From Candidatus Methanomethylicaceae archaeon (GTDB lineage Archaea; Thermoproteota; Methanomethylicia; Methanomethylicales; Methanomethylicaceae), in contig JANXER010000007.1 in the NCBI GenBank assembly GCA_025057955.1, positions 1-53,336 of the forward strand: a stretch of 53,336 nt of DNA, written 5' to 3'. Position 1 is the first letter of the stretch; each line of letters opens with the position of its first letter. A program made the translations under genes and the position numbers. Below are positions 6,352 to 50,917 of the stretch, in pieces. The notes below the pieces were generated by a model. That model was given only the letters and a program-made list of their open reading frames with translations, was not told the DNA's origin and did not search any database.

Positions 6352-7035
6352 TCACCTTTTGGAGAAAATCATTCTCGCATCAACAACTCTATATCCTCTT
6401 TCATAAACGATTGTAGGATTTAAATCTATTTCTGAAATTCTAGGAAAATCCATGATAATATTTGAAACTTTTAATATTACTTCAGCTAGGCTTTCTATAT
6501 CTGAGGGCTTTCTACCTCTTACTCCCTTTAATATTCTATGTCCTCTTATTTCTGAAATCATTTTCAAAGCTTCTTCTTTATCTATTGGCGCAATCCTCAG
6601 GGATATATCATTAAAAATCTCTGTAAATATGCCCCCCAGTCCGAAAACTACAACTGGTCCAAATTGAGGATCCATCTTAGCACCTATTATTGTCTCCAAG
6701 CCCTTTGGCGCCATTTCCTCTATGAGCACGCCCTCTAGCCTAAATCCACCATCTATAGCAATTTTTTCTATTTTCTTAAAAGCCTCATATGCTTCATTCC
6801 TACTATTTATATCTAAAATCACACCACCTACATCTGATTTATGAATTACATCTGGAGATACTATTTTCATTACTAATGGAAAAACAAAATCTTTTATAGC
6901 ATCATCAATTTCTTCAAGGCCTCTTATAACTTTCCATTTTCCAACAAAAATTCCATATTTTTGACATATTTCTTTTGCCTCTGGCTCTAAGAGCCATCCT
7001 CTTTCCAATCCTTTAAGAATTATTTCTTCCATCAT
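6352..7035 (-). CDS. acdB: ADP-forming acyl/acetyl-CoA synthetase beta subunit (ATP-grasp)
   Basis: LLEPEAK, KIVSPDVIHKSDVGGV, DPQFGPVVVFGLGGIFTE, EIDLNP, VDAR. Confidence 0.88.
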   Translation of the reverse strand: MMEEIILKGLERGWLLEPEAKEICQKYGIFVGKWKVIRGLEEIDDAIKDFVFPLVMKIVSPDVIHKSDVGGVILDINSRNEAYEAFKKIEKIAIDGGFRLEGVLIEEMAPKGLETIIGAKMDPQFGPVVVFGLGGIFTEIFNDISLRIAPIDKEEALKMISEIRGHRILKGVRGRKPSDIESLAEVILKVSNIIMDFPRISEIDLNPTIVYERGYRVVDARMIFSKR

Positions 7036-24441: not shown

Positions 24442-24488
24442 CTCCCCATAATTCTACTTATCTCAAAAGCATAGTGAGGATGGAATTT

Positions 24489-25823
24489 ATGGCAAAGTAT
24501 ATGGACAAAATTGATCTCTATGACGATCGTGGAAGGCTTTTTGATACCAATGTTCCATTGGAGGCAATAAGTCCACTCAAGAATCCAGCAATTCAGAAAA
24601 TAATTAACAATATAAAGCAATTTGTGGCAGTAAATCTTGAAGGCATAGAAAAGGCCTTATCGATAGGAGAGGTTGGTGGAAAGTTCTGTATTATAAGAGG
24701 AAGAACACTAAAGCTAGATTTAGTAAAAAATGCAGAAGCCATCGCTGAGGATTTGAAGAAATGTCTTCAAGTTGATAAGGAAGATGATACTGATGTTAGA
24801 GCAATAAAGGGAGGAAAGTACTTACTAGTTAGAGTTCCAAAGAGAAGATTGGATGCTGGTGTTGAATATACAACAGGTGTAACAGCAGTTGCTGCTGCTC
24901 TTTGCTGTATAATAATACAAAGATTTAACGTCAGCATATGGGATGCTGATTTAATACATACGGCAGTTTGGGGAAGATATCCTCAAACCATGGATATGCT
25001 AGGAGGCAATGTTTCCTCGCTATTAGCAGTACCACAACAAAATGAAGGTATGGGATATGCGCTTAGAAATATTCCATGTGCTAGCATTGCTCTTATAACA
25101 AGGAAAAATGCAATGAATGCTGCAGCATTGGCAGCCATATTAGAACAGACTGCTATGTTTGAGATGGGTGATGCTATAGGAAACTTTGAACGATATCATC
25201 TATTGGGATTAGCTTATCAAGGATTAAATGCCAATAATTTAGTATATGATTTAGTTAAGGAAAATGGAAAAGATGGAACACTTGGAAGCGTAGTTATTTC
25301 CACTGTGAAAAGAGCTTTAGCAGATGGTGTAATAAGACCGCTTAGTAAAATGCCCTCTGGCTATACCCTATATACAACTGATGACTTGAATAAATGGAAT
25401 GCTTATGCTGCTGCAGGATTATTAGCTGCAACCATGGTAACATGTGGTGCAGCTAGAGCTATGCAACATATTCCCTCTGTGCTAATTTACTTCAATGACT
25501 TAATTGAAAGAGAAACTGGTTTGCCTGGTGTGGATTTTGGAAGAGTTGCAGGAACTGGAGTTGAAATGGCCTTCTTCAGCCACTCAATTTATGGAGGAGG
25601 AAATCCTGCAGTGTTTCATGGAAATCATATAGTAACAAGGCATAGTAAGGGTTTTGCTATACCATGTGTAGCTGCAGCTGTAGCATTAGACGCTGGAACT
25701 ACAATTTACAGCCCTGAAAAGATTAGTGGAATTGTTGGAGAAGTCTTAAGCGAAGTACCTGAACTTAGAGAACCATTGCGTTATGTTAATGAAGCCGCAG
25801 TTTCTATAAAAGGAGGTGTTTAA
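24489..25823 (+). CDS. mcrB: Methyl-coenzyme M reductase beta subunit
   Basis: [62 protein letters not shown]. Confidence 0.98.
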
Positions 25824-25824
25824 G

Positions 25825-26601
25825 ATGATAGATTATAAGCCACAATATTATCCTGGATCATCCATTATAGCTGCTAATAGAAGAAAATACATCAATCCAA
25901 ATTATAAATTGGAAAAATTAAGATCCATAAGTGATGAGGATTTGGTCAGATTATTGGGACATAGAGCTCCAGGAGAGGCATATAAAAGTGTTCATCCACC
26001 ACTTGAGGAGATGGGAGAGCCAGAGTGTCCAATTAGACGATTAGTTGAACCTACGCCAGGTGCTAAAGCAGGAGATAGAATTAGATATGTACAGTTCACA
26101 GATTCAGTATACTTTGCTCCATTGGCTCCATATATGAGAGCATGGATGGGGCACTATAGATATCGAGGTGTGGATATAGGCGTACTATCTGGTAGAGTTC
26201 CATTGGAAGCAAGGGAACGCGATTTAGAGAAAGTAGCAAAGGAGCTTATAGAGACAGAAGTCTTCGATCCAGCAAGAGTAGGAATAAGAGGCGCCACTGT
26301 ACATGGCCATGCCTTAAGATTGGATGAAAATGGCATGATGTTCGATGCTCTGAGAAGATATCAGCTTGATAAGACCACTGGTGAAGTGGTATACGTTAAG
26401 GATCAAGTAGGCGTACCATTAGATAAGCCAATAACTCTTGGAAAACCAATGCCAGAGGATGAATTGAGAAAGAGAACCAGCGAATTTAGAGTGGATGGTG
26501 TAAGCTTTAGAACTGATGATGAACTCATAAGATTTATACAGAGGATTCATATATTAAGAACAGAAGCAGGTTTTGATCCAAATAAAGTTAAAGGAGTATA
26601 G
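25825..26601 (+). CDS. mcrG: Methyl-coenzyme M reductase gamma subunit
   Basis: [48 protein letters not shown]; GGAGGTG RBS before ATG 25825. Confidence 0.98.
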
Positions 26602-26612
26602 GGGGTGGGTTT

Positions 26613-28280
26613 ATGAGTGAGGAGAAAAAGTTTATAGAAGCTCTAAGGAGAAAATTTAAAGAAGCTCCCGAGGAGAAATTTACTAAGTTCTACATATATG
26701 ATGGATGGAAGCAATCTAAGAGGAAAAGAGAATTTGTAGAAATTGCTCAAAAAATAGCAAAGGAAAGGAGAATTCCATTCTATAATCCAGATCTTCACCT
26801 AGGAGGCATTCCATTAGGCCAAAGAGTTTTAATGCCCTACAGACTATCAGGAACCGATATATACTGCGAGGGTGATGATCTTCACTTCATTAATAATGCT
26901 GCAATGCAGCAAATGTGGCATGATATTAGACGAACTGTCATAGTTGGCTTAGATGCTGCTCATATGGTCTTAACTAAGAGGCTTGGTAAAGAAGTAACCC
27001 CTGAAACTATAAATCACTACTTGGAAGTATTGAATCATGCCTTGCCTGGTGCTGCCGTAGTTCAAGAACATATGGTTGAAACACATCCTGGTCTTGTCGC
27101 AGATAGCTATGTGAAAGTGTTCACTGGTGATGATGAGCTAGCGGATGAAATTGATGATAGATTTCTAATAGACATCAATAAGGAGTTTCCATCAGATCAT
27201 GCTCAACAGCTAAAGGCAGCTATTGGAAAGAGACTCTATCAAGTTTGTAGAATGCCAACAATTGTTGCTATGACTTGTGATGGAGCTACCATGTCGAGAT
27301 GGGCTGCTATGCAAATTTCAATGTCTATGATTAATGCCTATAAGCTAATGGCAGGTGAAGCTGCTGTAGCAGAATTTGCATTTGCTGCAAAGCATGCTGA
27401 ATTAATTGAAATGGGTACTTTAATGCCTTGGAGAAGAGCCAGAGGTCCTAATGAGCCTGGGGGTATTCCACTAGGATATATTGCAGATATATGTCAAGCT
27501 TCCAGGGTTAAGCCAGAAGATCCCGTTTGGGTTGCTCTTGAGGCAATATCCATGGGTGCAGTATTATATGATCAATTCTGGTTCGGTAGCTATATGTCTG
27601 GTGGCGTAGGATTCACACAATATGCTACATGCACTTACACAGATAATATACTTGATGACTTCTGCTATTATGGTGCAGATTATGTGAAGAAGAAATATGG
27701 TGGATTTGCTAAAGTTAAACCAAATTGGGATATTATTAAGGATATAGCAACAGAAGTATCCATATATGGATTAGAGCAATACGAGAGATTTCCAGCATTA
27801 ATGGAAACTCACTTTGGAGGATCTCAGAGAGCTGCTGTAGTAGCTGCTGCAGCAGGAGTATCTGTGGCTTTAGCAACTGGTCATTCTACTGCTGGTGTAA
27901 ATGCATGGTATTTGAGCCAATTATTACATAAGGAAGAGATGGGTAGACTTGGATTCTATGGCTATGATTGTCAAGATCAATGCGGCTCTACAAATAGTTT
28001 CTCATGGAGAAGTGATGAAGGCTTAGTTTTCAATTTAAGAGGAGTTAACTATCCCAATTATGCAATGAATGTAGGCCATCAATCTGCATACACTGGAATA
28101 ATTTCAGCGGCTCATGGTGGAAGAGGAGACGCATGGACAACCAATCCATTAATTAAAGTAGCATTTGCTGACAAGGATTTGAAGTTTGACTTCACACATC
28201 CAAGGCTATGCTTTGGAAAGGGCGCTCTTAGAGAATTCATGCCTGCAGGAGAAAGAGATCTCATAATTCCAAGCCACTAA
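26613..28280 (+). CDS. mcrA: Methyl-coenzyme M reductase alpha subunit
   Basis: VVQEHM (axial Ni ligand Gln), [61 protein letters not shown]. Confidence 0.99.
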
Positions 28281-28310: not shown

Positions 28311-28943
28311 ATGAGTAATGGATTTTTAGCTTTAAAGAGAATTATTGAAACTATATTTGATATCTTTACATTATCACCAAAGGAAGCAAGAGAGAAGTAT
28401 GATGAATTTCCTAATTTTGCTGAACAAATTGCAAAATTATTTCAAGAGGATCGCCTTTTTGAAATACCAGAAAGATTAAACTTACAATTGGAAATTGTGA
28501 AATCCTTTAGTCCAAAAGTTCGCCCTGCCCTTGATCCATATACTTCATTACAAATTGGTGTATTCAATAAGAATTTCTCAGATTGGGAAATTGGAAGATT
28601 TTTAAACTATCCTGAATGTTGCATAAGATCCTTTATTGAAGAGATTAGATATGGCTTTGATGAAAGGCATTTGAATGAATTGAAGACATTGAGTAGAGAT
28701 TGCATTTTCATAACCACGGCTGGTTTTATTCCTCATAGCATATTTTGTGAAAAATCCATTGAAACAGGATTGGCATCTATAATCAAGTATAATGAGCTTC
28801 TACTGTTAGAAGAACTAGAAGAAGAATTAGCAAAAGCTTTACCTCATTCCCATCCAGAGTATTGGCATCATTATTATGATGTTTTGAAATTTGATACATC
28901 ACATATTATTTTTGGGAGATCTTCTAAGGATTCGATTATATAA
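28311..28943 (+). CDS. DUF483-like protein (Cys/His-rich)
   Basis: RPALD, GRFLNYPECCIRSF, GFIPHS..C, PHSHPEYWHHYY. Confidence 0.65.
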   Translation: MSNGFLALKRIIETIFDIFTLSPKEAREKYDEFPNFAEQIAKLFQEDRLFEIPERLNLQLEIVKSFSPKVRPALDPYTSLQIGVFNKNFSDWEIGRFLNYPECCIRSFIEEIRYGFDERHLNELKTLSRDCIFITTAGFIPHSIFCEKSIETGLASIIKYNELLLLEELEEELAKALPHSHPEYWHHYYDVLKFDTSHIIFGRSSKDSII

Positions 28944-29964: not shown

Positions 29965-30900
29965 ATGGAATCCTTGGATAAAATTATTCGCATAGCAAAA
30001 GAATTTAAGGGTTTTTCTAGGAAGATTGAAATTGGCAATATTGTAAAAATTTTTGGTAATATAGATTATGATGATGCTGGCATTATAGATATTGATGATT
30101 ATCATATTGTTGTCTCCACTGATGGAATAACTGAGGATTTGGTTGTGGTTGATCCTTGGTTTGCTGGATATTATTCTGTTCTTGTTAATGTGAATGATGT
30201 TATTGTAAAGGGAGCGAAGCCAATAGGATATGTAAATGTATTATCTGGACCAAGAGAAATTAGAGATAAAATTGCAAAGGGCATAAAGGAAGGTCTTGAA
30301 AAATATGGAATTCGTCTTCTCAAGGGACATACACATCCAGATACTTCATATTCTGCTATAGATGCTGCAGTAATTGGAATTGCAAGAAAAGTAGTAAGAG
30401 GAACTACAGCAAGCCCCCTTCAAAAAATTTTAATGGTTGTAGATCTCGATGGATCTTTTATTAAAAAGGGCTGGGTCAAATGCTTTGATAGCACAATAAA
30501 CAAATCTCCAAGAGAGGTTCAAGAGATGATATCTGCAATAATATCCTTTATTGAAAATGGAGATGTAAAATGTTCTAAGGATGTAAGTGCGCCAGGAATT
30601 TTGGGAAGTCTTGCTATGTTGTGTGAAGCAAGCAATGTAGGTGCAATTGTTCATTTGGATAAAATTCCCATTCCCAAAGATATATTAATTACAGAGTGGT
30701 TGACCTCTTATCCTGCAATGGGCTTCATATTTGGAATTATTGAAGATAGAGGGATTTCTATTCTAGAAGAGGCTGGCTTCTCTATTGGGTTTATTGGTGA
30801 ATTTACTGAAGATAATAGGCTTAGAGTTGAATACAAAGGATTAGAGTATACATTTATGGATTTTTCTAAAGAATCAGTTATTGGATTAAAATCTAGCTAG
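29965..30900 (+). CDS. Methanogenesis marker protein 2 (AIR synthase/PurM-like)
   Basis: DDAG, DGI..L...PWFAGY.SVLVNVND, GHTHPD, KDVS.PG.LGSL.MLCEAS. Confidence 0.85.
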   Translation: MESLDKIIRIAKEFKGFSRKIEIGNIVKIFGNIDYDDAGIIDIDDYHIVVSTDGITEDLVVVDPWFAGYYSVLVNVNDVIVKGAKPIGYVNVLSGPREIRDKIAKGIKEGLEKYGIRLLKGHTHPDTSYSAIDAAVIGIARKVVRGTTASPLQKILMVVDLDGSFIKKGWVKCFDSTINKSPREVQEMISAIISFIENGDVKCSKDVSAPGILGSLAMLCEASNVGAIVHLDKIPIPKDILITEWLTSYPAMGFIFGIIEDRGISILEEAGFSIGFIGEFTEDNRLRVEYKGLEYTFMDFSKESVIGLKSS

Positions 30901-32485
30901 CCTTTTCTTCCGGTAATAGGTGCTTTACTACTTCAATAGCAGGCCCCTTTGCTACAATACTTCCATTTCTGAGCAAAATTGCCTCATCACATGTCTTCAT
31001 TATGAAATCTATATCATGTGAAACTATTATGAATGTTTGTTTCAATTCCCTTCTTACACTTTTTATCGACTTTACTATGTACTTTTGAGTTATAGGATCA
31101 ATGGTTCCTGTTGGCTCATCCAATATAACTAAAATTGGCTCTTTTATCAATACTTGTGAGAGGGCAACTCTATGTCTTTCTCCCTCGCTCAATTCATCAG
31201 GATATTTATTAAATAAATTCTCTATATGACTTTCTTCAAAGCCCACTGCCTTTAATGTAATTAAGGCTTTAAATTTAGCAAATTCATCTGGAAGTTCCAA
31301 TCCTATGGCATTTGTTAAATTTTCTAAAATTGTTCTATATGGATATAGGGAATATTCTTGATGTAATATTCCAATGTAGCTTGTGGCTCTTCCTCTTCCA
31401 GTTATTCCCGGCTCACTCATGTTCACCCATTCGTCGCCTACTTTGATTAAAACTTTTCCAGAGGTGGGCACTGTTAAACCTGCTATTATTCTTGAAAGTG
31501 TAGTTTTTCCTGCTCCACTTACCCCTATTATTCCAAAAATTTCTCCTCTTCTTATCTCAAATGATACACCATCTATCGCTCTTACGATTCCTCTATCTAT
31601 GGAAAAAAAGTACTTTTTCACATTTTCTACTTTCAATATTATATCTTCCACTAATGGTCTTTCCTCTCTCAAGTCCTCTAATCCTTCTGATAGAAAAATT
31701 TTCACAATTTCTTTTGGCTCACCAATTGCTTCAATTCTTCCTTCATTCAATAATATAGCTTTATTGCTCAAGATTTCTATGCCCTCAGTTAGATGTGATG
31801 TAAGTAACATGGTAACATTTTCCTTCTTCAATTCATTTAGCATGTTATATATCATTCTTGCACTTAAGGGATCAAGCGTTCCTGTAGGCTCATCCGCAAG
31901 TAATAGAATTGGATCAATGGCTAATTGTCTAGCTAATACAACTCTTTGTTTTTCTCCACCACTTAAGTCTCTTGCCACATGAATTAATCTATGAGAAAGT
32001 CCCATTTTCTCCACAAGCTCAAGGGCTTTTTTTGTTATATCATTCTCATTGATCTTCCATCTTCTACTGAATGCCTCCATAATGTTTTCATAAACTGTCA
32101 AGTTACCATAAAGGGCAAAAGTTCTTTGAAACATTATGGCAACTCTTCTCTTGATATCTTGTACAATTTTATTTTCATTCCAAAAATCAACTTCAATCAA
32201 TTTTAAACAACATCCACATCTAAGACAATTGCCTCCAACTTTGCTTGGTCTATCAACAAAACCGCATTTTTCACAATAGGCAACTCGATAAATTATTTTA
32301 CCTGATGTTGGCTCATAATTGCTTAAACCTTTTATCATTGATATGAGTACACTTTTACCAGATCCACTTTTTCCTAAAATTCCAATACAATCTCCTTCAT
32401 TTATTATAAAAGAAACATTCTTAAGGACATATTTATCATCGAATTTCTTAGAGACATTATCTACTATAATGAAGGGCTCCACCAT
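30893..32485 (-). CDS. atwA: MCR system component A2 (double ABC ATPase with zinc-binding insert)
   Basis: GKSGSGKS, CEKC...CLRC insert, IMFQRTFALY, LSGGEKQRVVLARQL, RGRAT.YIGILHQEY.LYP, ELSEGERHR. Confidence 0.93.
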   Translation of the reverse strand: MVEPFIIVDNVSKKFDDKYVLKNVSFIINEGDCIGILGKSGSGKSVLISMIKGLSNYEPTSGKIIYRVAYCEKCGFVDRPSKVGGNCLRCGCCLKLIEVDFWNENKIVQDIKRRVAIMFQRTFALYGNLTVYENIMEAFSRRWKINENDITKKALELVEKMGLSHRLIHVARDLSGGEKQRVVLARQLAIDPILLLADEPTGTLDPLSARMIYNMLNELKKENVTMLLTSHLTEGIEILSNKAILLNEGRIEAIGEPKEIVKIFLSEGLEDLREERPLVEDIILKVENVKKYFFSIDRGIVRAIDGVSFEIRRGEIFGIIGVSGAGKTTLSRIIAGLTVPTSGKVLIKVGDEWVNMSEPGITGRGRATSYIGILHQEYSLYPYRTILENLTNAIGLELPDEFAKFKALITLKAVGFEESHIENLFNKYPDELSEGERHRVALSQVLIKEPILVILDEPTGTIDPITQKYIVKSIKSVRRELKQTFIIVSHDIDFIMKTCDEAILLRNGSIVAKGPAIEVVKHLLPEEKAS

Positions 32486-32519
32486 TACTTCTCCCCATGT
32501 ATTTGATATCAAGGAATAT

Positions 32520-41496: not shown

Positions 41497-42000
41497 CTAA
41501 CTTATACTTACCTTTGTTACCGTAGGAATGGTTAAAAGCTTGGAAATAACTTCTCCTGGTACTTTTTTATCAGTTATAATAAGTAATTTTGGATCGGGAT
41601 TGAGATCTGGATCTTCAGCAAGTATTTGTCTAATGCTAAGGCCAGCCTCTGCTATATATGATGTTGCTTTAGCTATTACTCCAATAGCAGTTGGTTGTGC
41701 CCTTATTTCTAAAACCCCATAACCTAGTTCCGGTGCAACCTCCTTTAGAAAACTTCCCGCAGGCTTTATCTTTATGAAAATATTTCTCATTCTCTCATTA
41801 TTTATAATCTCTTTTACAGTTTGTCTTACAACCCTCCTATCTACGGATATAGCACGAGCTATACTAGTGTCAGGTATTTCAACATTGCCACACACTATTC
41901 TTCCTTCATCATTGATGCTTAAACCAAGCTCTACCATGACTCTTGCTACTTTAAGCTTAGCAGGAGAATTTGAAAAGAACTTTTCAACCTCTTTCCACAC
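41497..42000 (-). CDS. ACT-domain regulator of amino-acid metabolism (archaeal family)
   Basis: IARAISVDRRVV HTH-like segment, then an ACT domain (G.IA......AGLSIRQI...DP). Confidence 0.8.
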   Translation of the reverse strand: MWKEVEKFFSNSPAKLKVARVMVELGLSINDEGRIVCGNVEIPDTSIARAISVDRRVVRQTVKEIINNERMRNIFIKIKPAGSFLKEVAPELGYGVLEIRAQPTAIGVIAKATSYIAEAGLSIRQILAEDPDLNPDPKLLIITDKKVPGEVISKLLTIPTVTKVSIS

Positions 42001-42032: not shown

Positions 42033-42575
42033 TTAGTCTATGCCAATTATTATGGTACCAAGCTCCGGTCTCTCCTCTTTCACACCAAGTCTTACTTTCA
42101 AATATTTATCTGCTGGTGGTGATGGACTCCCTACAATTGCATTCAATTTCTCTAACTCAGGTATGCATAATGGCAACATTATTGTCAATAGTTTATCCCT
42201 TTTTTCCTTTATTATACTTACTTTATCTTTATATATTACTAAATTTCCTATAACAATATTCCCTTCCTCTTTTAATTTTCTTAATAACTCCTCATCATAT
42301 ATATCTTCAGCTATCACTTCATTATCACACACCATTCTTACTAGAGAAGTCTTAGGCCATTTAAATTCCATATTAGTTAAACATGCATATATTGACTTTT
42401 TACTAAGGGCTTTTCTTACACCTAAGTTTAATCCCCTACATAATCCCATCAATATATTGCTCTCAGCCTCTTTTTCCAACCTCTCAATTTCCTTCTTATC
42501 TTCATCATTTAATTTCACAACTTTTACTATTCCCTCTATTCTATTTAAAACATTAAAAATCTCATCGTTTAACAT
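42033..42575 (-). CDS. Hypothetical protein translationally coupled to the RACo gene
   Basis: 180-aa ORF overlapping the RACo stop by 14 nt, normal composition, three Cys in the N-terminal half, SPSPP motif. Confidence 0.7.
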   Translation of the reverse strand: MLNDEIFNVLNRIEGIVKVVKLNDEDKKEIERLEKEAESNILMGLCRGLNLGVRKALSKKSIYACLTNMEFKWPKTSLVRMVCDNEVIAEDIYDEELLRKLKEEGNIVIGNLVIYKDKVSIIKEKRDKLLTIMLPLCIPELEKLNAIVGSPSPPADKYLKVRLGVKEERPELGTIIIGID

Positions 42576-44463
42576 ATCTTCTCACATTTATTGGTGATTT
42601 TATTATACTCATTACTTCTGGAAAATCCTCTAGCCTACTATTTGGCATGAACATTGCATTTATATACTCTTCTTCAAATATTCGCTCTACAGCCAATTCT
42701 ACATATTTCATTTTCTTCACAATTTCCTCAGCCTCTTTTCTATAATCTATAGACTTCAAGCACAATCTAGCGCCTGATCCTGCTGTATTACCTAAGAAGG
42801 AGATTCTTGAAGTTGGCAAATCAGGTATAATTCCTATGATTTTTGCGCTTAAAGGATCTATATAACTTCCAAAGGCTCCTGCAATTATAATTTCAGATAT
42901 TTCTTCTTTTTTTAATCCTCCTTTTTTCATAAGTGTCATATATCCGGCATATATTGCTGCTTTTGCTTTCTGTATTTCTCTTATATCCTCTTGTGTTATT
43001 ACGATATCTTCTTCACCCGTTGCTGTTTCCTCTTTGAATACTAGAATGAACTCTTTACCAAATCCTCCCTCGCGCACTCTTCTATGGTTCTTTAAAATTA
43101 TTCTTCCTGATGTATCTATTATGCCTGTTCTCAACATTTCAGCAATAGCATCTATAATACCTGAACCACATATCCCTCTTGGTTTTTCATCATTTATTGT
43201 AATATACTCAACTTCAAAATCCTCTCTTATCTTTACTTTTTCTATGGCTCCACTAGCAGCTCTCATACCATATCTTACATGTGCTCCTTCAAATGCTGGA
43301 CCAGAGGCTGTGGAGCAACACCATAATCCTCTCTTATTGCCTAGTATTACTTCAGTATTAGTTCCAACGTCCATAAGTAGAGTAATTTTTTCTTTCTCGT
43401 GTATTCTTGATGCTAAGACATCTGCTATGGCATCTGCACCAACAAATCCTGCTATATTTGGCAATGTATAAACATTGCCAGATGGATTTATATTAATTCC
43501 AAGTTCTTTTGCCTTAATATTATAGCTCATTCCTATTACAGGAGAATAAGGAGCTAATCCAAGCCATTTTACATTTAATCCTAGAAAAAGATGATGCATA
43601 GCAGTATTTCCTACGACAACCACCTCATATAAATCCTCTCTCCTTACATCTGTTTCCATCAATCCTCTCTCTATTAATTCATTTATTCCAGCTATTATTG
43701 ATCTTTGCAATTCCTTCAGATTTTCCTCACTCTGAGATGCATATTGTATTCGTGAAATTACATCCTCGCCGTACTTTATCTGTGGATTCATAATTCCATC
43801 AGCAAATAGTATTTTTCCACTTATGAGATCTACTATGAATACCGCAAGCTTTGTAGTTCCAATATCCACAGCTACTCCATAACAATCCTTTGTTTTATCA
43901 CCAGGTTGAATATTTATAATTTCTCTATTATTTATTATTGTAAAGGTAACCTTCCAACCACTCTCTCTTAAAATCTTCGGCATCTCTTTTATAATAGTAT
44001 AATCTAATGAAAAATTACTCATTCCTAAATGGGATAGAACTTCATTAATTCTAACGTCATCCCCCCTAGGATCTTCTAATGATGGAGGATTAATTTCGAA
44101 ATAGAGCTTTTTGATATTGGGACTTACTTTAGCAGTTGGCTCTACGCCCATTATTACCAATTTTTGCCTTCCTATTCTACTCTTATCTGGAACATTTATT
44201 ATCAAATGATCTAAAACTTTCAATTGACATGCTAATCTAATTCCCTTCGCAATTCTCTCTCTACCAATTTTACGTACCTCTTGTTCTGTGGGTGGAGGAG
44301 TGCTTCCCTTTACTACTTCCACTAAGCATTTTCCACAAGTTCCTCTGCCACCGCATAATGCTACAAGATCAACATCAGCTTTCAATGCTGCTGTTAATAC
44401 TGTGGAAGAATCTTGAACTGAGATCTTCTTACCCTCTGGTAAAAATTTTACTTCAAATTCCAT
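42562..44463 (-). CDS. ATP-dependent reductive activator of corrinoid proteins (RACo/DUF4445 ASKHA with N-terminal [2Fe-2S])
   Basis: CGGRGTCGKC...RLACQ ferredoxin; VDIGTT, NPQ..YGEDVISRI, FVGAD, DVGTNTE, GPAFEG, GICGSG, AGAFG, GNTA. Confidence 0.92.
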   Translation of the reverse strand: MEFEVKFLPEGKKISVQDSSTVLTAALKADVDLVALCGGRGTCGKCLVEVVKGSTPPPTEQEVRKIGRERIAKGIRLACQLKVLDHLIINVPDKSRIGRQKLVIMGVEPTAKVSPNIKKLYFEINPPSLEDPRGDDVRINEVLSHLGMSNFSLDYTIIKEMPKILRESGWKVTFTIINNREIINIQPGDKTKDCYGVAVDIGTTKLAVFIVDLISGKILFADGIMNPQIKYGEDVISRIQYASQSEENLKELQRSIIAGINELIERGLMETDVRREDLYEVVVVGNTAMHHLFLGLNVKWLGLAPYSPVIGMSYNIKAKELGININPSGNVYTLPNIAGFVGADAIADVLASRIHEKEKITLLMDVGTNTEVILGNKRGLWCCSTASGPAFEGAHVRYGMRAASGAIEKVKIREDFEVEYITINDEKPRGICGSGIIDAIAEMLRTGIIDTSGRIILKNHRRVREGGFGKEFILVFKEETATGEEDIVITQEDIREIQKAKAAIYAGYMTLMKKGGLKKEEISEIIIAGAFGSYIDPLSAKIIGIIPDLPTSRISFLGNTAGSGARLCLKSIDYRKEAEEIVKKMKYVELAVERIFEEEYINAMFMPNSRLEDFPEVMSIIKSPINVRRYVKR

Positions 44464-46126
44464 TCTCTTTCAACCTCATATAATCTTCAATTACCTTTGA
44501 AGGATCACCATCGCTTATAATTTTACCATTAATTATTAATATACATCTATCTGCTACTTCCTCTATGAAGTCTAATTGATGGCTTACAAGTATTATTGCT
44601 GGTTTTAGGATTAATTTAATTTTTTTCAAAATATTGGCAACTCTCCTTAAGTTTAAAGGATCTAAATCTCCAAAAGGCTCATCAAGTAGAAGTACCTTTG
44701 GATTAGATACTAGAGAAAGAGCAAGTGCTATTCTTATTTTCTCTCCACCTGAGAGCTCATAAGATTTTCTATTGAGTATTTCTGAACTAAGATTGAACCA
44801 ATTTAAAATTTCCTCTGCAATCTTTCTACTTTTCTCAAGATTTTTTTCTAAAAAAATCTCTTTTAAAGCAATTCTATCAATTCCTAATTCACTTAGCTTA
44901 ATTTCCATTTCATTTTCAGGAAGTTCCATTATTCTACCTAGGAAATCCACTTGAGTTTCACTTAATCCTATTTTTTTTGCTCTTCGAAAAGCTCCTTCTA
45001 ATAGCTTATAATCCTTAATTCCTAGCCTTGAGGAGAATAAATTCAATACTTCAGACCAATAAGGTAAATCGAACTCTTGATGCATTATGCTTATTTTTCT
45101 CCTGGCTTTAAGGCTCCTCCTTCCAAGTTTATTAATTGTAACCCATTCTCCTTTATGATATAGCAATATATTTCCAGAGTTGGGCAATTCCAATCCTGCT
45201 AATATTCTTAATAGTACAGTTTTTCCGGCGGCAGAAGGACCAATGATTGCTGTTATTTCACCAGTTCTAAAGCTCATAGTTGTATTTTTCAATTCAAATA
45301 TTTTTCCATAGGGGATCAATTTGTATACTTTTTCAACATTTTCCATCCTTAAAATCTCTCTTCCTTTTATTCTAGTTTTCTCCAGAGGTCTCTCCAATTT
45401 AGAGAGAAACTCATCAACAATTTCCTTTGGCCTTCCTTCCATTAGTTTTCTTCCCTTTTCAATAAGCACGACTCTATCTGCGAGTTTCAAATGTGTTTGA
45501 GGATTATGAGATACAAAGAGTATACTTGTTCCATAAGCATCTCTTACTCTTTTTAATGCATCAATTAAAGCCTCTCTACTTTTTATATCCGTCATAGTAC
45601 CAGGCTCATCAAGTAGTAATAGCTTTGGCTTTCTTGCAATTTGTCTTGCCACAATAAGCCTTTGCTTCTCTCCACCGCTTAATATTACAGACCAGAGATC
45701 TACTTTTCCATCCAATCCTACGACCTTCAAAATTTCCAAGGCTCTAGCTTTATATTCTTCATATTCGCTTTCACTTTGAGGTAAACTCTCCTCTTTTATA
45801 TCTTGATACCTTAAGGCTCTAATAACATTATCTATGACTGAATCTGGCCAAAGAGCAAAGGTCCTTTGAAGTTGTATTGCAGTCCTCTTCTGAAGCTCAT
45901 AAAATGCTTCCTTTGGTGAATTTGGAGTTACTTCAAGATCTTCAAATATAATTCTCCCACTATTGAAGCTCTCTACACCCCTCAATATTCTCAATAGTGT
46001 GGTTTTTCCTGCTCCACTCTCTCCTAGTATGCCTAAAATTTCTCCTCTATTCAAATTCAATGAAATTGAATTTAAAGCTGTAATTCCATTTGGAAATATC
46101 TTCACAATATCTTCACATGAAAGCAT
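44453..46126 (-). CDS. Second component-A2-like double ABC ATPase lacking the zinc-binding insert
   Basis: GESGAGKTT, LSGGEKQR, LLLDEP and GPSAAGKT, LSGGEKIR, LLLDEP; A2-like blocks LQRTFALW..VIDNV, EWV....GR, MHQEF; no TM segments and no permease nearby. Confidence 0.8.
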   Translation of the reverse strand: MLSCEDIVKIFPNGITALNSISLNLNRGEILGILGESGAGKTTLLRILRGVESFNSGRIIFEDLEVTPNSPKEAFYELQKRTAIQLQRTFALWPDSVIDNVIRALRYQDIKEESLPQSESEYEEYKARALEILKVVGLDGKVDLWSVILSGGEKQRLIVARQIARKPKLLLLDEPGTMTDIKSREALIDALKRVRDAYGTSILFVSHNPQTHLKLADRVVLIEKGRKLMEGRPKEIVDEFLSKLERPLEKTRIKGREILRMENVEKVYKLIPYGKIFELKNTTMSFRTGEITAIIGPSAAGKTVLLRILAGLELPNSGNILLYHKGEWVTINKLGRRSLKARRKISIMHQEFDLPYWSEVLNLFSSRLGIKDYKLLEGAFRRAKKIGLSETQVDFLGRIMELPENEMEIKLSELGIDRIALKEIFLEKNLEKSRKIAEEILNWFNLSSEILNRKSYELSGGEKIRIALALSLVSNPKVLLLDEPFGDLDPLNLRRVANILKKIKLILKPAIILVSHQLDFIEEVADRCILIINGKIISDGDPSKVIEDYMRLKENGI

Positions 46127-46129
46127 ATC

Positions 46130-47044
46130 TTACACCTTGATTAGATAGGACTGAGGGAGAATTTTAACTAATATGTAGCTTCTCATTAGAGATTTTTTAA
46201 TATTAGCTATATCACCAAGCCTCCTTCCCTCAATATCTATGGAGGCCACTTTATATCTATAATCATCATAAGGTAATTTTATTCTTAAACCATCTATTTT
46301 CAATGTGATTGGGCTAGGTGAAAGTGCCTCTAGAGCTTCTGGCATTTGTCTTTCAATTTCCTTTTTCACAAGTGCTGGCTCTACAATTAAAGGATCAAGA
46401 TCCATTTCCCTTCTTCTCTTCTCAGCCACTCTTTCTGCCAAATCAGATACTAATTCCAATTTTTCAATCATTTCATTAATTCTAAATCTCTCTGGATATC
46501 TACCAATACCTCCTACATAACCTTCAATTCCTGGCAGTTCAATTTCATCAGGACCACCTGTTACAATAATGGGTATGGATATATCTTTGAATAATTTTGT
46601 TTTGAAGTTTTTTAGACAATATTCAAAATTTCCAAGCACAAATATAGCAATATCATGTTCTTCTATAAGTTCACGATCTTCTTTACTTATATGCGCTATT
46701 TTCTGACCAACACCTCTTGAAAGCCCTAATAGATTTGTCTTAGCTCCATGTCTTCTTAGATTCTCTGCAATATCACAAGCTGGATGAGGTAAATGATGTC
46801 TCGAGAGGCTTGGAGCTACTACTACAATCTCCACTCCTATGAGTGGAGCTTCCTTTAAGCTTCCCTTCAGTTCCTCTGCAATTTCCATCACTTTTTTTAA
46901 ATCATTTTCTGGAACAGCTATATGCATTATTAAATCAAGTCCAATGACATTCTTTTGTATGATAAAACCTCCTAAATCTTCCACAAACTCCACTAAAATT
47001 TCATGTTTATGGACTCCTCCTTCAAATATAAGATACTTTAGCAT
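46130..47044 (-). CDS. Methanogenesis marker protein 7
   Basis: FEGGVHKH..LVEFVEDLGG, PLIGVEI.VV.PSLSRHHLPHPACDIAE.LR, GLSRGVG, EEHD. Confidence 0.92.
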   Translation of the reverse strand: MLKYLIFEGGVHKHEILVEFVEDLGGFIIQKNVIGLDLIMHIAVPENDLKKVMEIAEELKGSLKEAPLIGVEIVVVAPSLSRHHLPHPACDIAENLRRHGAKTNLLGLSRGVGQKIAHISKEDRELIEEHDIAIFVLGNFEYCLKNFKTKLFKDISIPIIVTGGPDEIELPGIEGYVGGIGRYPERFRINEMIEKLELVSDLAERVAEKRRREMDLDPLIVEPALVKKEIERQMPEALEALSPSPITLKIDGLRIKLPYDDYRYKVASIDIEGRRLGDIANIKKSLMRSYILVKILPQSYLIKV

Positions 47045-47576
47045 TATCAATCATCTCCATTGCCTTCTTAATCCATTCCTCTTTAATGGGATCCTCTGAA
47101 GCAATTATAATTATAATTTCATCTCTCTTCATAGAACGTCTAATTTTGAAGCCTTCGGGTAAAATTCTTGATATCAACTCCGTAATTTTCTCAGTAACAC
47201 TTATTGCCTTCTCTCTTATCTTAATTTCTTTCAAGTATTCTAAATCAACTCCTTTTACAAGAATATCATTTCTTCCTATTTGCTCAATCTTGTCTCTTCC
47301 CAACTCACTCCAAAGCGCCCTCAGAGCATCAGCTAGATCCAATTCATTATCAAGCGATATCTTAATACTATCAGATCTCACCTCAAATTTTGCTAAATCT
47401 TTAAGTACGTTCTTCCTTTCAAATTCTCTATAGCTTATACTGATTATAAAGAGGGGGATTTCCGGTCTTATATATGCATATAGCCATTTTATGCTTCCAC
47501 CTAATGCCAAATCTTCTACAGCTCTTTCAATGAGATGTCTATAACGCTCTCCTCCCTTCTTATCAGAGGAGTCCAC
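47022..47576 (-). CDS. Methanogenesis marker protein 17
   Basis: D..G...Y..LI, P.FII, LW..LGRD.IEQ, RILPEGFKIR, ASED; lies between mmp6 and mmp7. Confidence 0.82.
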   Translation of the reverse strand: MDSSDKKGGERYRHLIERAVEDLALGGSIKWLYAYIRPEIPLFIISISYREFERKNVLKDLAKFEVRSDSIKISLDNELDLADALRALWSELGRDKIEQIGRNDILVKGVDLEYLKEIKIREKAISVTEKITELISRILPEGFKIRRSMKRDEIIIIIASEDPIKEEWIKKAMEMIDNAKVSYI

Positions 47577-47589
47577 AATGAGCCTAATT

Positions 47590-47988
47590 TTAAGCCTCCT
47601 CCACTATTTTTTTAAGGATTTCATAATTCAATTTATCTCTCTTTCTTCTAGGAGCCTCCTCAGCACTTTCTAGCGCTTTAGCAACGTTCTTTAGTACACT
47701 TCTCTCCAATCCTAGCATGAAAAAACCTGGCCTTGGTCCTCCGCCTCTTTTTGCTCTACAAATTCTTTCATCTCCTATTCTAAATCCCCTCGCTTTTACA
47801 AATATTCTATTTGGATCCATCTCCTTCAATTCCTTTATGGCCTTCTCAACGACTTCATCCTCTCCCTCTATTAAGAGGCCATAGCAAGTCTCCTTATAAT
47901 TTATATCACTGATCTTAGAGATTTTCTCCGCCAACATTGATGGTGTTAAATTTGAATCTGGTGATAGCATAACCACATAAGTTTTCAT
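47590..47988 (-). CDS. Methanogenesis marker protein 6
   Basis: KETCYG..IEG, IF.K.RGF..GD.RICRA.RGGGPRPGF..L..E. Confidence 0.9.
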   Translation of the reverse strand: MKTYVVMLSPDSNLTPSMLAEKISKISDINYKETCYGLLIEGEDEVVEKAIKELKEMDPNRIFVKARGFRIGDERICRAKRGGGPRPGFFMLGLERSVLKNVAKALESAEEAPRRKRDKLNYEILKKIVEEA

Positions 47989-49478
47989 TAATTAGCCTCC
48001 ATAATGTAAATTTCATCATTTTCTCTAATATTTTTCAAATTCTCCAAACCTGCTATAACTTCCCCTATTATATTGCTTCCATCGAACCCCTCAGCTGTTG
48101 GACCAAATTTTTCACTTCTTGATAATCTTATTCCAATTATACCTACATTCTTCTTTACAGAATTGGTCACTCCTATTACTCCAGCATTAACACCCTCCTT
48201 TGGAGTATTCTCTGGTATGAGCATTTTTTCTATATTACCTTTGAATAAAACTACATCCTTTGTTGCAAAGAAAACTTTCAAACACCCTATTTTTTTCAAG
48301 TCCATTCCAGTAACTCTTTCAAAATATTTCACAGTAACTGGTGCAAGCTCCCTATATAGTTTTATTTTCAAGATTTTATTCTTTGATATCCCTTTACAAA
48401 TCACCTTTCCTTCTTTATAAATTTCTAAAGTGGTTGATGGCATATGATCAACAATTATAGCATCATCACTGACATCTTCTTCTCTTATACATCTTATGCC
48501 TAAATTCTTCAAAATGATGGAAGCTTCATATTGAGTCTTTCCCAATAATTCTATTTTAGCTGGATTGACTATAACTTTAATTCTATCTCCTTCTAAAGCT
48601 ACATCAGCGAGCTCCAATCCCTTTGTGATCTTGCCCACTATTGTATGATCAATGGATATTGGCGCTCTATCCGTATATACATAGATGGATCCTGTCATAA
48701 TTCCTCCATTTCTAATAGAGATTACACCTCTTTCCCTAATTCCAATTTTTTCTCTTTCCAATGAAGTTACGTATTTATCATGTGAAATGAATCTACTAGT
48801 CTTTCTTGAGACTAGAAAGCCATTAGCTAATGCATTATATAAATATTCTCCATTCTTGGGAGATTCAAAATCCAAGGAAATTTCCATATGAGTTATTATT
48901 TCATCTCCATAATTTGGTACGTAATCTAAATTTACTCGCATTAATTGTATTCCTCCTCTTTCCTTTACTATGGGGGAGATTTTTTCTATATAATCTCCCA
49001 CTTTCAATAATTCAAGAATATGTCTTCCATAGACCACTTTTCCCATAATATCTCCATCATCTGGAGGAAAATATAATCCAACATGAGTTTTCTTGCTAAA
49101 TATTAAATGCGACTCATCTAAACTCATTCCAGATAGACTGATTGTAATCTCATATTGTTTTAACTCAATTTCCTTTATTAATGGTTTAAAGTTTGAGATT
49201 GTAGGGCCAAAGGCTATGGCCTCATTGGTTGCCCATCTTACTTTACAACCTTCAAAATTTTTGTAAACTTTTCTCCATTTATCTAGAGCTTTTTCACATT
49301 CCCATCTTATTATAATTTTACCTCTATTAGTTATTACCTCATAGAGATTTGTAATAATTTTTTCTATATCTATTGGCCTTTTCACTGCTATAATGAAATC
49401 ATTAAAATTAGGTAATATTTTCCTTAGATTCTCCCCCTCTTGAATTTCAAATTCAATTCCATCCACTATAATCTTCAT
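47988..49478 (-). CDS. Methanogenesis marker protein 3 (cyclophilin-like)
   Basis: I.VDG, T..G, VRW....AFGP, LSG, R.RG.ISIRN.G...G.IYVY, AP.T..YF, PEN.P, IGVTN, FGPT.E.F.GSNI.G; ATG 49478. Confidence 0.88.
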   Translation of the reverse strand: MKIIVDGIEFEIQEGENLRKILPNFNDFIIAVKRPIDIEKIITNLYEVITNRGKIIIRWECEKALDKWRKVYKNFEGCKVRWATNEAIAFGPTISNFKPLIKEIELKQYEITISLSGMSLDESHLIFSKKTHVGLYFPPDDGDIMGKVVYGRHILELLKVGDYIEKISPIVKERGGIQLMRVNLDYVPNYGDEIITHMEISLDFESPKNGEYLYNALANGFLVSRKTSRFISHDKYVTSLEREKIGIRERGVISIRNGGIMTGSIYVYTDRAPISIDHTIVGKITKGLELADVALEGDRIKVIVNPAKIELLGKTQYEASIILKNLGIRCIREEDVSDDAIIVDHMPSTTLEIYKEGKVICKGISKNKILKIKLYRELAPVTVKYFERVTGMDLKKIGCLKVFFATKDVVLFKGNIEKMLIPENTPKEGVNAGVIGVTNSVKKNVGIIGIRLSRSEKFGPTAEGFDGSNIIGEVIAGLENLKNIRENDEIYIMEAN

Positions 49479-49525: not shown

Positions 49526-49873
49526 GTGCCTTTATTGAGCGAGCAAGAGATAGAATTAATGCCAAGAAGATTAATGTCCATGGATAGGGCAGATGAGCTT
49601 GTTAATATGCTTAAGGCTACTGGCTTAATTAGTGAAGTACTATTGCAAAAACACAAATATTATGATGGAAAATACTTGGTTGGACGCTTTATATTATTGA
49701 TTAATAATCCTCCGAATGAAGTTATAAGCAAAATTGCTCCAATTTGTGAAAAAATGATGCCATATGGCTATGATATTAGAGTAGGTAAATTTACAAAACC
49801 AAGGCCCACAGTCTCAGACTATATTAGGGAGGCAATATATTGGAGCGAACTATTGGAAGGGGAACGCAAATAG
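49526..49873 (+). CDS. mcrD: Methyl-coenzyme M reductase operon protein D (short form)
   Basis: IELMPRRL, VGRF, PYGYDIRVGKFTK..PTVSDY; directly upstream of mcrC. Confidence 0.78.
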   Translation: MPLLSEQEIELMPRRLMSMDRADELVNMLKATGLISEVLLQKHKYYDGKYLVGRFILLINNPPNEVISKIAPICEKMMPYGYDIRVGKFTKPRPTVSDYIREAIYWSELLEGERK

Positions 49874-50511
49874 TTGATTGTAGAGAAGCGCAAGGAGTGG
49901 GAATAGGTGGAGGTTTAGCTCAAAGAGGGACGATTTCAGAATCCGAACGCCTTGATGTTGTTGCAATAGCAATGTCTCCTTCAAAGAGGCATATTACAAA
50001 ACCCATTTGCGAAATAACCTATGGACTTAGGGAGCAAGGAATAAGGACTAGCGTATTAGTTCTTGAATCTGGATCAGGAGTTCCACCTGATTCACCATAT
50101 GGTGGTGCACCAGGTGGAACAATGGCTGGAATTACTGAGAAGGAAATTCTTCAAATAAAGAGATTTAAGTTAGCAATTCTTCATCTTGGTGGTATTGCAG
50201 GTCATGTAGTATATAAGGCAAGAGCTTTTTTACGTTACGTGGATATTCCAGCCATAATTGTTTGTGAGGCACCTGTGGACTATGAGGATTTCGCAAAAGT
50301 TGGTATAATAACAAGATTGGTTCGCCCTCCTCCAGATAGAGTGGAATGTCTTGGCATAATTGTGGATATAGTGACTGGAGTTGTTAGAGGTGTGAGCGTT
50401 CAAAGAGATAAATTGAATGAAATAATATTAAAGGTTAAATTTTGGTTAAATAAAATAGAGGAAGGATCGGTGAAATTAATTGGCCAAAGTATATATCCAT
50501 CCTCCAAATAG
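49840..50511 (+). CDS. mcrC: Methyl-coenzyme M reductase operon protein C
   Basis: IGR.TQIVDCRE..G.G.GGGLAQRGTISE, SPSKRHITKPICEIT, SVLVL.SGSG.P, CEAPVD.EDFAK.G. Confidence 0.95.
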   Translation: MERTIGRGTQIVDCREAQGVGIGGGLAQRGTISESERLDVVAIAMSPSKRHITKPICEITYGLREQGIRTSVLVLESGSGVPPDSPYGGAPGGTMAGITEKEILQIKRFKLAILHLGGIAGHVVYKARAFLRYVDIPAIIVCEAPVDYEDFAKVGIITRLVRPPPDRVECLGIIVDIVTGVVRGVSVQRDKLNEIILKVKFWLNKIEEGSVKLIGQSIYPSSK

Positions 50512-50917
50512 CCTAATTTTATTCGATTTAGTTAGGCGATTTGGGCATACTCCTCTTGGATTGGGTGAGGAGGTTTCTAAGAATGTCAATAAGCCAGAGA
50601 TTGATTCTCCTCCAATGAATATAACTCCCGATTTTCCTAGAAAGGGCTTAAAATATGTTGCAATAGAGGTTCCTTCTGGGGTTAGAGGAAGATTGGCTCT
50701 AATAGGTCCATTAATTGAAGAGGCAGATGCTGCAATAATAGTAGATGATCCAGAGGTTGGCTTTGGATGTACAAGCTGTGGAAGAGCTAATGAATTCCTC
50801 ATATATCTTGTGAAGCAGAGAGGAATTCCTTACATTGTGGTTCCCTATCCTTATACCGAAGAAGAAGCGAAAATCATGGTTAGTGAGATTAAAAAGTTCC
50901 TAGCCTCTTTACATTGA
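50480..50917 (+). CDS. Methanogenesis marker protein 5
   Basis: KVYIHPPNSLIL.DLV.RFGH.PL, DSPPMNIT, GLKY.AIEVPSGVRGR, FGC.SC.R.NE. Confidence 0.93.
   Translation: MAKVYIHPPNSLILFDLVRRFGHTPLGLGEEVSKNVNKPEIDSPPMNITPDFPRKGLKYVAIEVPSGVRGRLALIGPLIEEADAAIIVDDPEVGFGCTSCGRANEFLIYLVKQRGIPYIVVPYPYTEEEAKIMVSEIKKFLASLH

Follow-up and report, generated by a model that had tools for sequence, protein, structure and literature searches.

A Methanomethylicales operon that joins genes for methyl-coenzyme M reductase activation with a gene for a putative RACo-type corrinoid activase

The window analyzed here is a 53,336-nucleotide (nt) stretch, JANXER010000007.1, which is contig C47 of a 1.21-Mb, 94% complete Methanomethylicaceae genome with a G+C content of about 34%. 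On its minus strand, from 49478 to 42033, seven co-oriented genes encode Mmp3, Mmp6, Mmp17, Mmp7, an A2-like ABC ATPase (A2′), a RACo protein, and a 180-amino-acid (aa) protein (Hyp180). The interpretation that we favor, with a probability of about 0.6, is that this is a lineage-specific operon of Methanomethylicales, which gives co-expression of two separate ATP-driven reactivation systems. The first module, which consists of Mmp3-Mmp6-Mmp17-Mmp7 and A2′ together with the divergently encoded McrD-like, McrC, and Mmp5 proteins, would serve the activation of methyl-coenzyme M reductase (MCR), where the nickel of F430 is reduced from Ni(II) to Ni(I). The second module, consisting of RACo and Hyp180, would serve the corrinoid proteins of methyltransferase systems encoded elsewhere in the genome. 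The seven genes would be transcribed together, and the two modules would work without physical coupling. The modules have separate phyletic and neighborhood affinities, and the whole arrangement is conserved within the order.

A sequence-only reading of the window had proposed a co-oriented, tightly packed run of mmp3, mmp6, mmp17, mmp7, an A2-like gene, RACo, and a hypothetical gene. The family scores upheld these identities, and the packing held when the junctions were re-read. The genes of the run are as follows, in the order of transcription:

47988–49478, minus strand: Mmp3 (methanogenesis marker 3); TIGR03268, 447 bits (cut-off 234)
47590–47988, minus strand: Mmp6 (DUF2102); TIGR03272, 131 bits (cut-off 126); PF09875, 118 bits
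47022–47576, minus strand: Mmp17 (DUF2113); TIGR03291, 127.5 bits (cut-off 67); PF09886, 155 bits
46130–47050, minus strand: Mmp7 (McrC-like, MCR_C domain); TIGR03274, 407.5 bits (cut-off 349); PF04609, 366 bits
44453–46126, minus strand: A2′, A2-like ABC ATPase with two nucleotide-binding domains (NBDs), 557 aa; TIGR03269, 309 bits (cut-off 517)
42562–44463, minus strand: RACo, 633 aa; four Pfam domains (Fer2, RACo_linker, Raco_middle, RACo_C_ter)
42033–42575, minus strand: Hyp180, 180 aa, of a family without annotation; no Pfam or NCBIfam family

The Mmp3 and Mmp6 genes have one base in common (TAATG), Mmp6 and Mmp17 are separated by 13 nt, and Mmp7 and A2′ by 3 nt, while A2′ overlaps RACo by 11 nt and RACo overlaps Hyp180 by 14 nt. 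The earlier statement of overlaps or gaps of 13 nt or less does not fit Mmp17/Mmp7, where the overlap is 23 or 29 nt, depending on whether Mmp7 starts at ATG 47044 or TTG 47050. The mechanically called open reading frame (ORF) of Mmp3 starts at TTG 49565, and the TIGR03268 alignment begins at residue 32 of this long ORF; the Mmp3 start is probably ATG 49478. A TTTATAAA box, which we take to be TATA-like, is located about 40 nt upstream of this ATG.

The conservation of the arrangement was examined in a survey of the class, in which 60 relatives and the genome itself were searched for RACo_C_ter, Mmp7, the A2-like protein, and the 180-aa protein, and in 80 Mmp7 loci taken from genome records, 26 of them from Methanomethylicales and 54 from other lineages. 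The survey showed that RACo_C_ter is located about 3.6 kb downstream from Mmp7, on the same strand, in 31 of the 33 genomes of families f1 and f2, own genome included. In the two exceptions (G012 and G030) the genes are at contig ends, which is consistent with the same order. Mmp3-Mmp6-Mmp17-Mmp7 was present in all 26 Methanomethylicales loci, and A2′ was the next gene after Mmp7 in 25 of them, the contig of locus L047 ending after Mmp7. RACo came next after A2′ in 24 of the 26 loci (the other two contigs end earlier), and Hyp180 next after RACo in 22. The operon is also present in the records named Methanosuratincola, a genus with cultured members. The overlap of A2′ with RACo was 8–14 nt in 22 of 24 scored loci, and that of RACo with Hyp180 was 14 nt in 19 of 22, while the gap between Mmp7 and A2′ was larger, 75–87 nt, in six related loci. 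Hyp180 is gone from the operon in genus g9, and it is missing after RACo in locus L050. The conservation of the arrangement across an order suggests that it exceeds chance. Additionally, the seven mmp-linked RACo sequences included in a tree formed one clade with a support of 1.0, and this monophyly fits a single relocation of RACo.

Outside of these families the genes were found apart. In the sister family f6, which has a Nezhaarchaeales-type layout, Mmp7 and RACo are unlinked in G040, G046, and G048, where they are on different contigs or 870 kb from each other. Searches with tblastn and hidden Markov models (HMMs) detected no RACo within 10 kb of Mmp7 in any of the 54 other-lineage loci, some of which have flanks shorter than 10 kb; these loci come from Methanomicrobiales, Methanomassiliicoccales, bog and fen "Halobacteriota" metagenome-assembled genomes, Bathyarchaeota BA2, and Nezhaarchaeota. 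In a separate sample of 151 Halobacteriota genomes, Mmp7 was present in 94, RACo_C_ter in 91, and the pair in 71. None of the 71 had the two within 5 kb, although pairs split across contigs could escape this count, and the closest distances were 10 kb (G440) and 22 kb (G430). Hence, the synteny comparison suggested by the sequence-only reading showed that mmp7-A2′-RACo is kept across Methanomethylicales, but that it is unlinked in Nezhaarchaeales-type genomes and in the other lineages sampled.

The RACo protein of the window matches all four domains of its family, with scores of 41 bits for PF00111, 72 bits for PF17650, 201 bits for PF17651, and 322 bits for PF14574. It aligns over its full length with the solved RACo 3ZYY (458 bits; residues 2–617 against 3–630), and the [2Fe-2S] ligands Cys37, Cys43, Cys46, and Cys79 are invariant in 13 orthologues. 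On the other hand, it scored under the cut-off for AcsV (NF040756; 532 vs 800 bits) and under that for RamA (TIGR04270; 156 vs 500 bits), which it matched in the ASKHA part only. The window RACo is the only RACo_C_ter match in the 1.21-Mb genome. The same genome contains at least five ORFs of about 210–230 aa for B12-binding proteins, which are located beside MtaA-family, MtmB, and core-MetE-like genes, and its methyltransferase set rests on these three kinds of genes, with MtaB and MttB not found in it. No B12-binding protein was matched on the contig of the window. This means that the earlier remark that no corrinoid protein or methyltransferase gene lies near RACo is true within the window, but misleading for the genome, where at least five corrinoid-protein genes are located elsewhere. 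In locus L011 (G000:C23:5370-8104), an MtmB homologue (PF05369, 385 bits) was seen as an uninterrupted 452-aa ORF beside a corrinoid protein, and it is followed by a second ORF of about 460 aa, which no NCBIfam model matched.

The neighborhoods of RACo orthologues in other members of the class were also compared. The orthologues compared have 41–47% identity. In L018, L019, and L025, which belong to class members without Mmp7, they adjoin MttB-family genes and a corrinoid protein. In the Nezhaarchaeales-type locus L017 the neighbor is MtrH, and in L024 the neighbors are two MtaA-like genes, a corrinoid protein, and a copy of Hyp180. That the genome, with its five or more corrinoid proteins, has no other such activase, and that orthologues in mcr-less relatives adjoin corrinoid and MttB genes, suggests that the window RACo belongs with the methyltransferases, and that it is a probable activase for their corrinoid proteins. 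A RamA-type gene is present besides the mmp-linked RACo in 17 of 32 f1 genomes, and the one copy scanned, that of G008, is a true RamA (782 bits) located beside mtaB-mtaC. The cobalamin radical-SAM methylase Mmp10 was considered as a client of RACo and rejected, as no Mmp10 scored at the cut-off in the 94% complete genome, the best match being 26 bits.

The A2′ protein has component A2 (AtwA, TIGR03269) as its best family, even though its score remains below the curated cut-off. It has two NBDs, which match PF00005 in two stretches, and the GxxGxGKT, LSGGE, and LLLDEP motifs are present in each half. However, A2′ lacks the 26-aa CxxC...CxxC Zn-binding insert of the N-terminal NBD of canonical A2, which appears as a gap of 26 columns in the alignment. 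It contains two cysteines in total, and it has three inserts of its own relative to canonical A2. The identity to the canonical A2 of the same genome is 34%, and among solved structures the best match is the A2 chain of 8S7V/9H1L (234 bits). Because the canonical A2 is encoded in the same window, the ATPase of the operon is a second, A2-like copy. The claim of a second A2-like ATPase was thus borne out, with 309 bits for A2′ and 759 bits for canonical A2 on TIGR03269.

The distribution of A2′ follows that of Mmp7. Of the 61 class genomes, 37 contain Mmp7, and A2′ was found in each of these and in none of the other 24. Among the Halobacteriota genomes sampled, A2′ was present in 38 of the 94 with Mmp7 and in none of the 57 Mmp7-negative ones. 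The gene is tail-to-tail with mcrA in the Nezhaarchaeales-type loci L016, L023, and L088, and it is located between mcrA and A2/mcrBG in the Bathyarchaeota BA2 locus L127. Full-length relatives with 38–48% identity were found in Methanobacterium, Archaeoglobi, Methanospirareceae, and Halobacteriota genomes. The restriction to Mmp7-positive genomes, together with the location beside mcr or mmp genes in three Thermoproteota lineages, suggests that A2′ belongs with MCR as a paralogue of component A2 without the Zn motif. The same limitation to Mmp7-bearing genomes and physical tie to mcr/mmp genes make it a candidate for a second MCR-dedicated ATPase. Several single loci were noted: in G004 (C16:3214-4853) the A2-like gene is in two pieces abutting at one position, which could be a frameshift or an assembly error; in L049 a distance of 846 nt separates Mmp7 from a partial A2-like match; in the Halobacteriota genome G439 (C2:79825-82392) a Zn-less A2 paralogue directly adjoins a second Mmp7-like gene; and in G546 (C1:3347621-3355509), of the same sample, such a paralogue is 5.5 kb away from a RamA-type gene.

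In the proposed mechanism, RACo would receive an electron onto its [2Fe-2S] cluster and would use ATP to enable the reduction of Co(II) to Co(I), in the manner of its solved counterpart. With the single general activase of the genome placed in the operon, its expression would be coupled to that of the MCR-activation genes, and both systems would be needed when a methyl-reducing methanogen runs the path from methyl-corrinoid through methyl-coenzyme M to methane. The MCR activation operon of Methanosarcina acetivorans is reported to have constitutive, low-level expression (bioRxiv 10.64898/2026.03.18.712670). A steadily expressed operon might suit a general activase that serves several dispersed methyltransferase systems. 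The sequence-only reading had suggested an integrated reactivation module, and this idea holds in the sense of co-expression, as the linkage is real and conserved, while its stronger mechanistic forms lack support. The parts of the operon match known families, and the arrangement with RACo and Hyp180 appears to be a new form of the MCR activation operon.

A profile search placed the Hyp180 protein in a family of 417 representative clusters, nearly all of about 190 aa, among which Methanonatronarchaeum and Hodarchaeota members were named, and a word-index protein search returned only seven close relatives, none with an assigned function. The predicted model of Hyp180 had a predicted local distance difference test score (pLDDT) of 91. 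A Foldseek search with this model against the PDB gave nothing at E ≤ 0.001, and the look-alikes in the ESM Atlas were viral and nameless clusters only, with few shared features. The matches obtained with VIA-align were almost only nitroreductase/FMN-superfamily chains, including BluB and iodotyrosine deiodinase, with Z of 4.2–7.2 and a root-mean-square deviation of 3.0–4.4 Å over 90–117 of the 180 residues. This could hint at a nitroreductase/FMN-like fold, but because this Z range is middling, the similarity is treated as a lead only.

The genes found around Hyp180 vary as well. A paralogue with 28–32% identity is located beside the second, short RACo-type gene in 11 of the 17 relatives that have such a gene, or in 12 when a partial copy at a contig end is counted. 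All nine Methanomassiliicoccales-type loci that span the region from McrC to Mmp3 (L071, L076, L085, L091–L094, L096, and L098) have a Hyp180-family gene there, on the opposite strand, within the cluster A2-McrC-Mmp3-Mmp6-Mmp5-Mmp15-Mmp17-Mmp7; six of these nine Hyp180-family sequences were in the HMM seed. No RACo was found within 10 kb of these genes. A role of Hyp180 as a constant partner of RACo was considered and rejected, because RACo or RamA was within about 7 kb in none of 19 Thermoproteota genomes outside the class, where the neighbors were leucyl-tRNA synthetase-like, aminotransferase, and similar housekeeping genes; these are 19 of the 21 such genomes carrying Hyp180, with G311 and G366 left out. 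Since its neighborhoods include RACo, RamA, the MCR-activation cluster, and housekeeping genes, Hyp180 appears to be strictly tied neither to RACo nor to MCR. The prediction of a complex of RACo with Hyp180 gave a score of 0.00 in two runs for which controls were not folded, which is evidence neither way. Some further copies were noted: in genus g9, locus L125 (G009:C12) has a Hyp180 copy at 6976–7509, immediately followed by an ORF of 193 aa that weakly matches B12-binding_2 (27 bits); L092 and L098 have a second Hyp180-family copy upstream of A2; and in L085/L128 a corrinoid protein and an MtmB split by an in-frame stop are located just upstream of A2.

Several observations weigh against two separate modules in one operon. 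The single transcript is deduced from the gene overlaps, and there could be an internal promoter in the longer Mmp7–A2′ gap of the six related loci. A2′/RACo/Hyp180 have the tightest and best conserved junctions, which span both proposed modules, and translational coupling often accompanies physical association. All 17 f1 genomes that have a RamA-type gene keep the mmp-linked RACo, which suggests that RACo may do a job that RamA cannot. The position of Hyp180 inside the Methanomassiliicoccales-type MCR-activation cluster (9/9 loci) ties it to MCR activation without RACo. Finally, because the carrier genomes are kin, the layout that they share goes back to a single event in the order's ancestor.

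This last point leads to the alternative that the adjacency has no function. RACo-Hyp180 would then have arrived downstream of the mmp genes a single time, before the order diversified, and the junction would simply have been passed on in small, gene-dense genomes. The carriers being one clade with a monophyletic mmp-linked RACo agrees with this, as do the absence of the linkage from the other lineages examined and the size of the genome (1.2 Mb), in which unrelated neighbors in the window are likewise tightly packed. However, no break of the junction was observed in the 10 f1 genera or in the one genome of f2, despite divergence to 56% identity in RACo and 47% in A2′, and this in a region that is otherwise rearranged, with Hyp180 moved in genus g9 and lost from its place behind RACo in L050. 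We therefore consider a fortuitous neighborhood unlikely. We give very little credence to the alternative that A2′-RACo-Hyp180 is a three-part corrinoid-activation unit without an MCR role, which is behind mmp7 only incidentally. The highly conserved A2′/RACo and RACo/Hyp180 overlaps and the possible promoter in the longer Mmp7–A2′ gap could be explained in this way, and two Halobacteriota genomes have a RACo_C_ter gene at a distance of 5.5 kb (G546) or 14 kb (G500) from an A2′ homologue. Yet A2′ was found in none of the 24 Mmp7-less genomes of the class, though 17 of them have RACo, and in none of the 57 Mmp7-negative Halobacteriota genomes, of which 20 have RACo. Moreover, it is located among mcr genes without RACo in the Nezhaarchaeales-type and Bathyarchaeota BA2 loci, and no solved protein is closer to it than the A2 subunit of the MCR activation complex.

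A direct coupling of the two systems was also considered, in which RACo is an ATP-driven entry point whose [2Fe-2S] cluster would supply the McrC/Mmp7 cluster chain with a low-potential electron, or in which RACo serves both MCR and the corrinoid proteins. RACo is known to act by binding its corrinoid protein, and is not known to be a free low-potential donor. Its orthologues in class members without Mmp7 are beside corrinoid and MttB genes, the sister-order methanogens with Mmp7 and A2′ have RACo elsewhere (G040, G046, and G048), and RACo was near Mmp7 in none of the 54 other-lineage loci (10 kb) and none of the 71 Halobacteriota genomes (5 kb). The genome also needs a corrinoid activase, for which no other candidate was found. 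These data make direct coupling quite improbable, even though RACo is kept in the mmp operon order-wide with overlaps of 8–14 nt with A2′, and is retained in genomes also holding a RamA-type gene. The independent embedding of a Hyp180-family gene in the Methanomassiliicoccales-type MCR-activation cluster also speaks for such a coupling, the field has yet to settle on a physiological electron donor for the activation complex, and the main text of the structure paper likens the action of A2 to ATP-dependent corrinoid activation (PMC12176620). There is a slim chance of a bolder version, in which A2′-RACo-Hyp180 is an extra ATP-driven electron-input unit, made of the [2Fe-2S]/ASKHA engine of RACo, a Zn-less A2 paralogue, and a flavoprotein-like partner, for the McrC/Mmp7 clusters or for the regeneration of Ni(I)-F430 and Co(I)-corrinoid alike. 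If true, it would be the first corrinoid-type activase recruited to a nickel tetrapyrrole enzyme. Co-expression of two separate systems remains the interpretation that we prefer.

The genes flanking the operon and the other MCR-related genes of the window are the following:

41497–42000, minus strand: TrpY-family regulator with an ACT-like C terminus; NF053754, 204 bits (cut-off 180)
49526–49873, plus strand: McrD-like ORF, 115 aa; PF02505, 54 bits, C-terminal half of the profile
49840–50511, plus strand: McrC; TIGR03264, 282 bits (cut-off 213.5)
50480–50917, plus strand: Mmp5 (DUF2112); PF09885, 198 bits
29629–29901, minus strand: DUF2098, outside the operon; PF09871, 75 bits
29965–30900, plus strand: Mmp2, between DUF2098 and A2; TIGR03267, 249 bits, under its cut-off
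30893–32512, minus strand: canonical component A2, outside the operon; TIGR03269, 759 bits
34353–35624: Mmp15, outside the operon

The TrpY-family regulator begins 32 nt after Hyp180 in the window. It is also downstream of the operon in 21 of 26 related loci, with a gap of 68–949 nt in the 19 that could be scored, and it may be the last gene of the operon, a regulator of the operon, or a gene outside of the transcript. On the other side, the GTG of the McrD-like ORF is 47 nt from the Mmp3 ATG, and this ORF is directly upstream of mcrC and overlaps it. Because the 115-aa ORF matches McrD, the divergent unit is mcrD-like/mcrC/mmp5, apart from mcrBGA (24474–28280). Besides mcrBGA, the window further encodes TfuA, YcaO/Mmp1, and Mmp15. 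A DUF483 protein (PF04467, 106 bits) is encoded at 28311–28943 on the plus strand, after mcrA, and as its 40%-identical homologue adjoins Mmp5-Mmp15 in the Nezhaarchaeales-type loci L016, L023, and L088, it is a further conserved neighbor of mcr and mmp genes.

Methyl-reducing methanogenesis is sustained by two "repair" steps that consume ATP, the activation of MCR and the reactivation of corrinoids, and little is known of how cells supply and coordinate both. The operon provides testable leads in a lineage with cultured members. One is that the two repair systems may be co-regulated. Another is that the Zn-less A2 paralogue, which is not known to have served as more than an outgroup in phylogenies, is a candidate for a second MCR-dedicated ATPase. 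The third is the family of about 190 aa represented by Hyp180, which recurs beside RACo, beside RamA, and inside the Methanomassiliicoccales MCR-activation cluster. No description of the linkage of RACo to MCR-activation genes was found in the literature searched, which did not extend to supplements and subscription journals, so that an earlier mention is possible.

The operon can be compared with the MCR activation operon of M. acetivorans, which is reported to contain component A2, Mmp5, Mmp6, Mmp17, Mmp7, Mmp3, and Mmp15 (bioRxiv 10.64898/2026.03.18.712670). The order A2-Mmp3-Mmp6-Mmp5-Mmp15-Mmp17-Mmp7 was seen, either in full or truncated where a contig ends, in 53 of the 54 other-lineage loci. 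In both operons, Mmp3, Mmp6, Mmp17, and Mmp7 form one co-oriented unit with an A2-lineage ABC ATPase that has two NBDs. On the other hand, the ATPase of the window operon is the Zn-motif-less paralogue, and the canonical A2 is 12 kb away with TfuA, YcaO, and Mmp15. Also in contrast to M. acetivorans, Mmp5 is in the divergent McrD-like/McrC unit on the other strand, and RACo and Hyp180 are appended, an addition seen in no other lineage examined.

The sequence-only reading had listed Mmp6 along with Mmp3, Mmp7, Mmp17, McrC, DUF2098, and component A2 as members of the MCR activation complex. In Methanococcus maripaludis, McrC, Mmp7, Mmp17, Mmp3, A2, and DUF2098 were co-purified (Nature 2025, PMC12176620; 9H1L/8S7V), which agrees with this list except for Mmp6, which has 0 mentions in the main text of that paper. 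The window encodes homologues of all six co-purified proteins. As described in this main text, where "RACo" and "RamA" appear 0 times, the complex has no RACo-like, A2′-like, or Hyp180-like subunit.

The A2′ protein can also be compared with MA_3967 of M. acetivorans, a component A2 homolog without the zinc-binding motif, which serves as an outgroup in the preprint (bioRxiv 10.64898/2026.03.18.712670). A2′ resembles MA_3967, as described there, in having a pair of NBDs without a Zn motif and in being present in many archaea that carry MCR. In Thermoproteota, A2′ is physically tied to mcr and mmp genes, whereas its Halobacteriota homologues adjoin an Mmp7-like gene in one of 38 genomes (G439).

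With the RACo of Carboxydothermus hydrogenoformans (3ZYY; complex with the corrinoid iron-sulfur protein (CoFeSP), 4C1N), the window RACo shares the four-domain architecture and the conserved [2Fe-2S] cysteines. It differs in that its likely substrates are small MtaC/MtmC-type corrinoid proteins, and not the CoFeSP of the acetyl-CoA pathway, and in that its gene is located among MCR-activation genes. With RamA (TIGR04270), the corrinoid activase of the Methanosarcina methylamine methyltransferases, it has in common the ASKHA RACo_C_ter domain and, presumably, the ATP-dependent reduction of Co(II) to Co(I) in methyltransferase corrinoid proteins, while unlike RamA it carries an N-terminal [2Fe-2S] domain.

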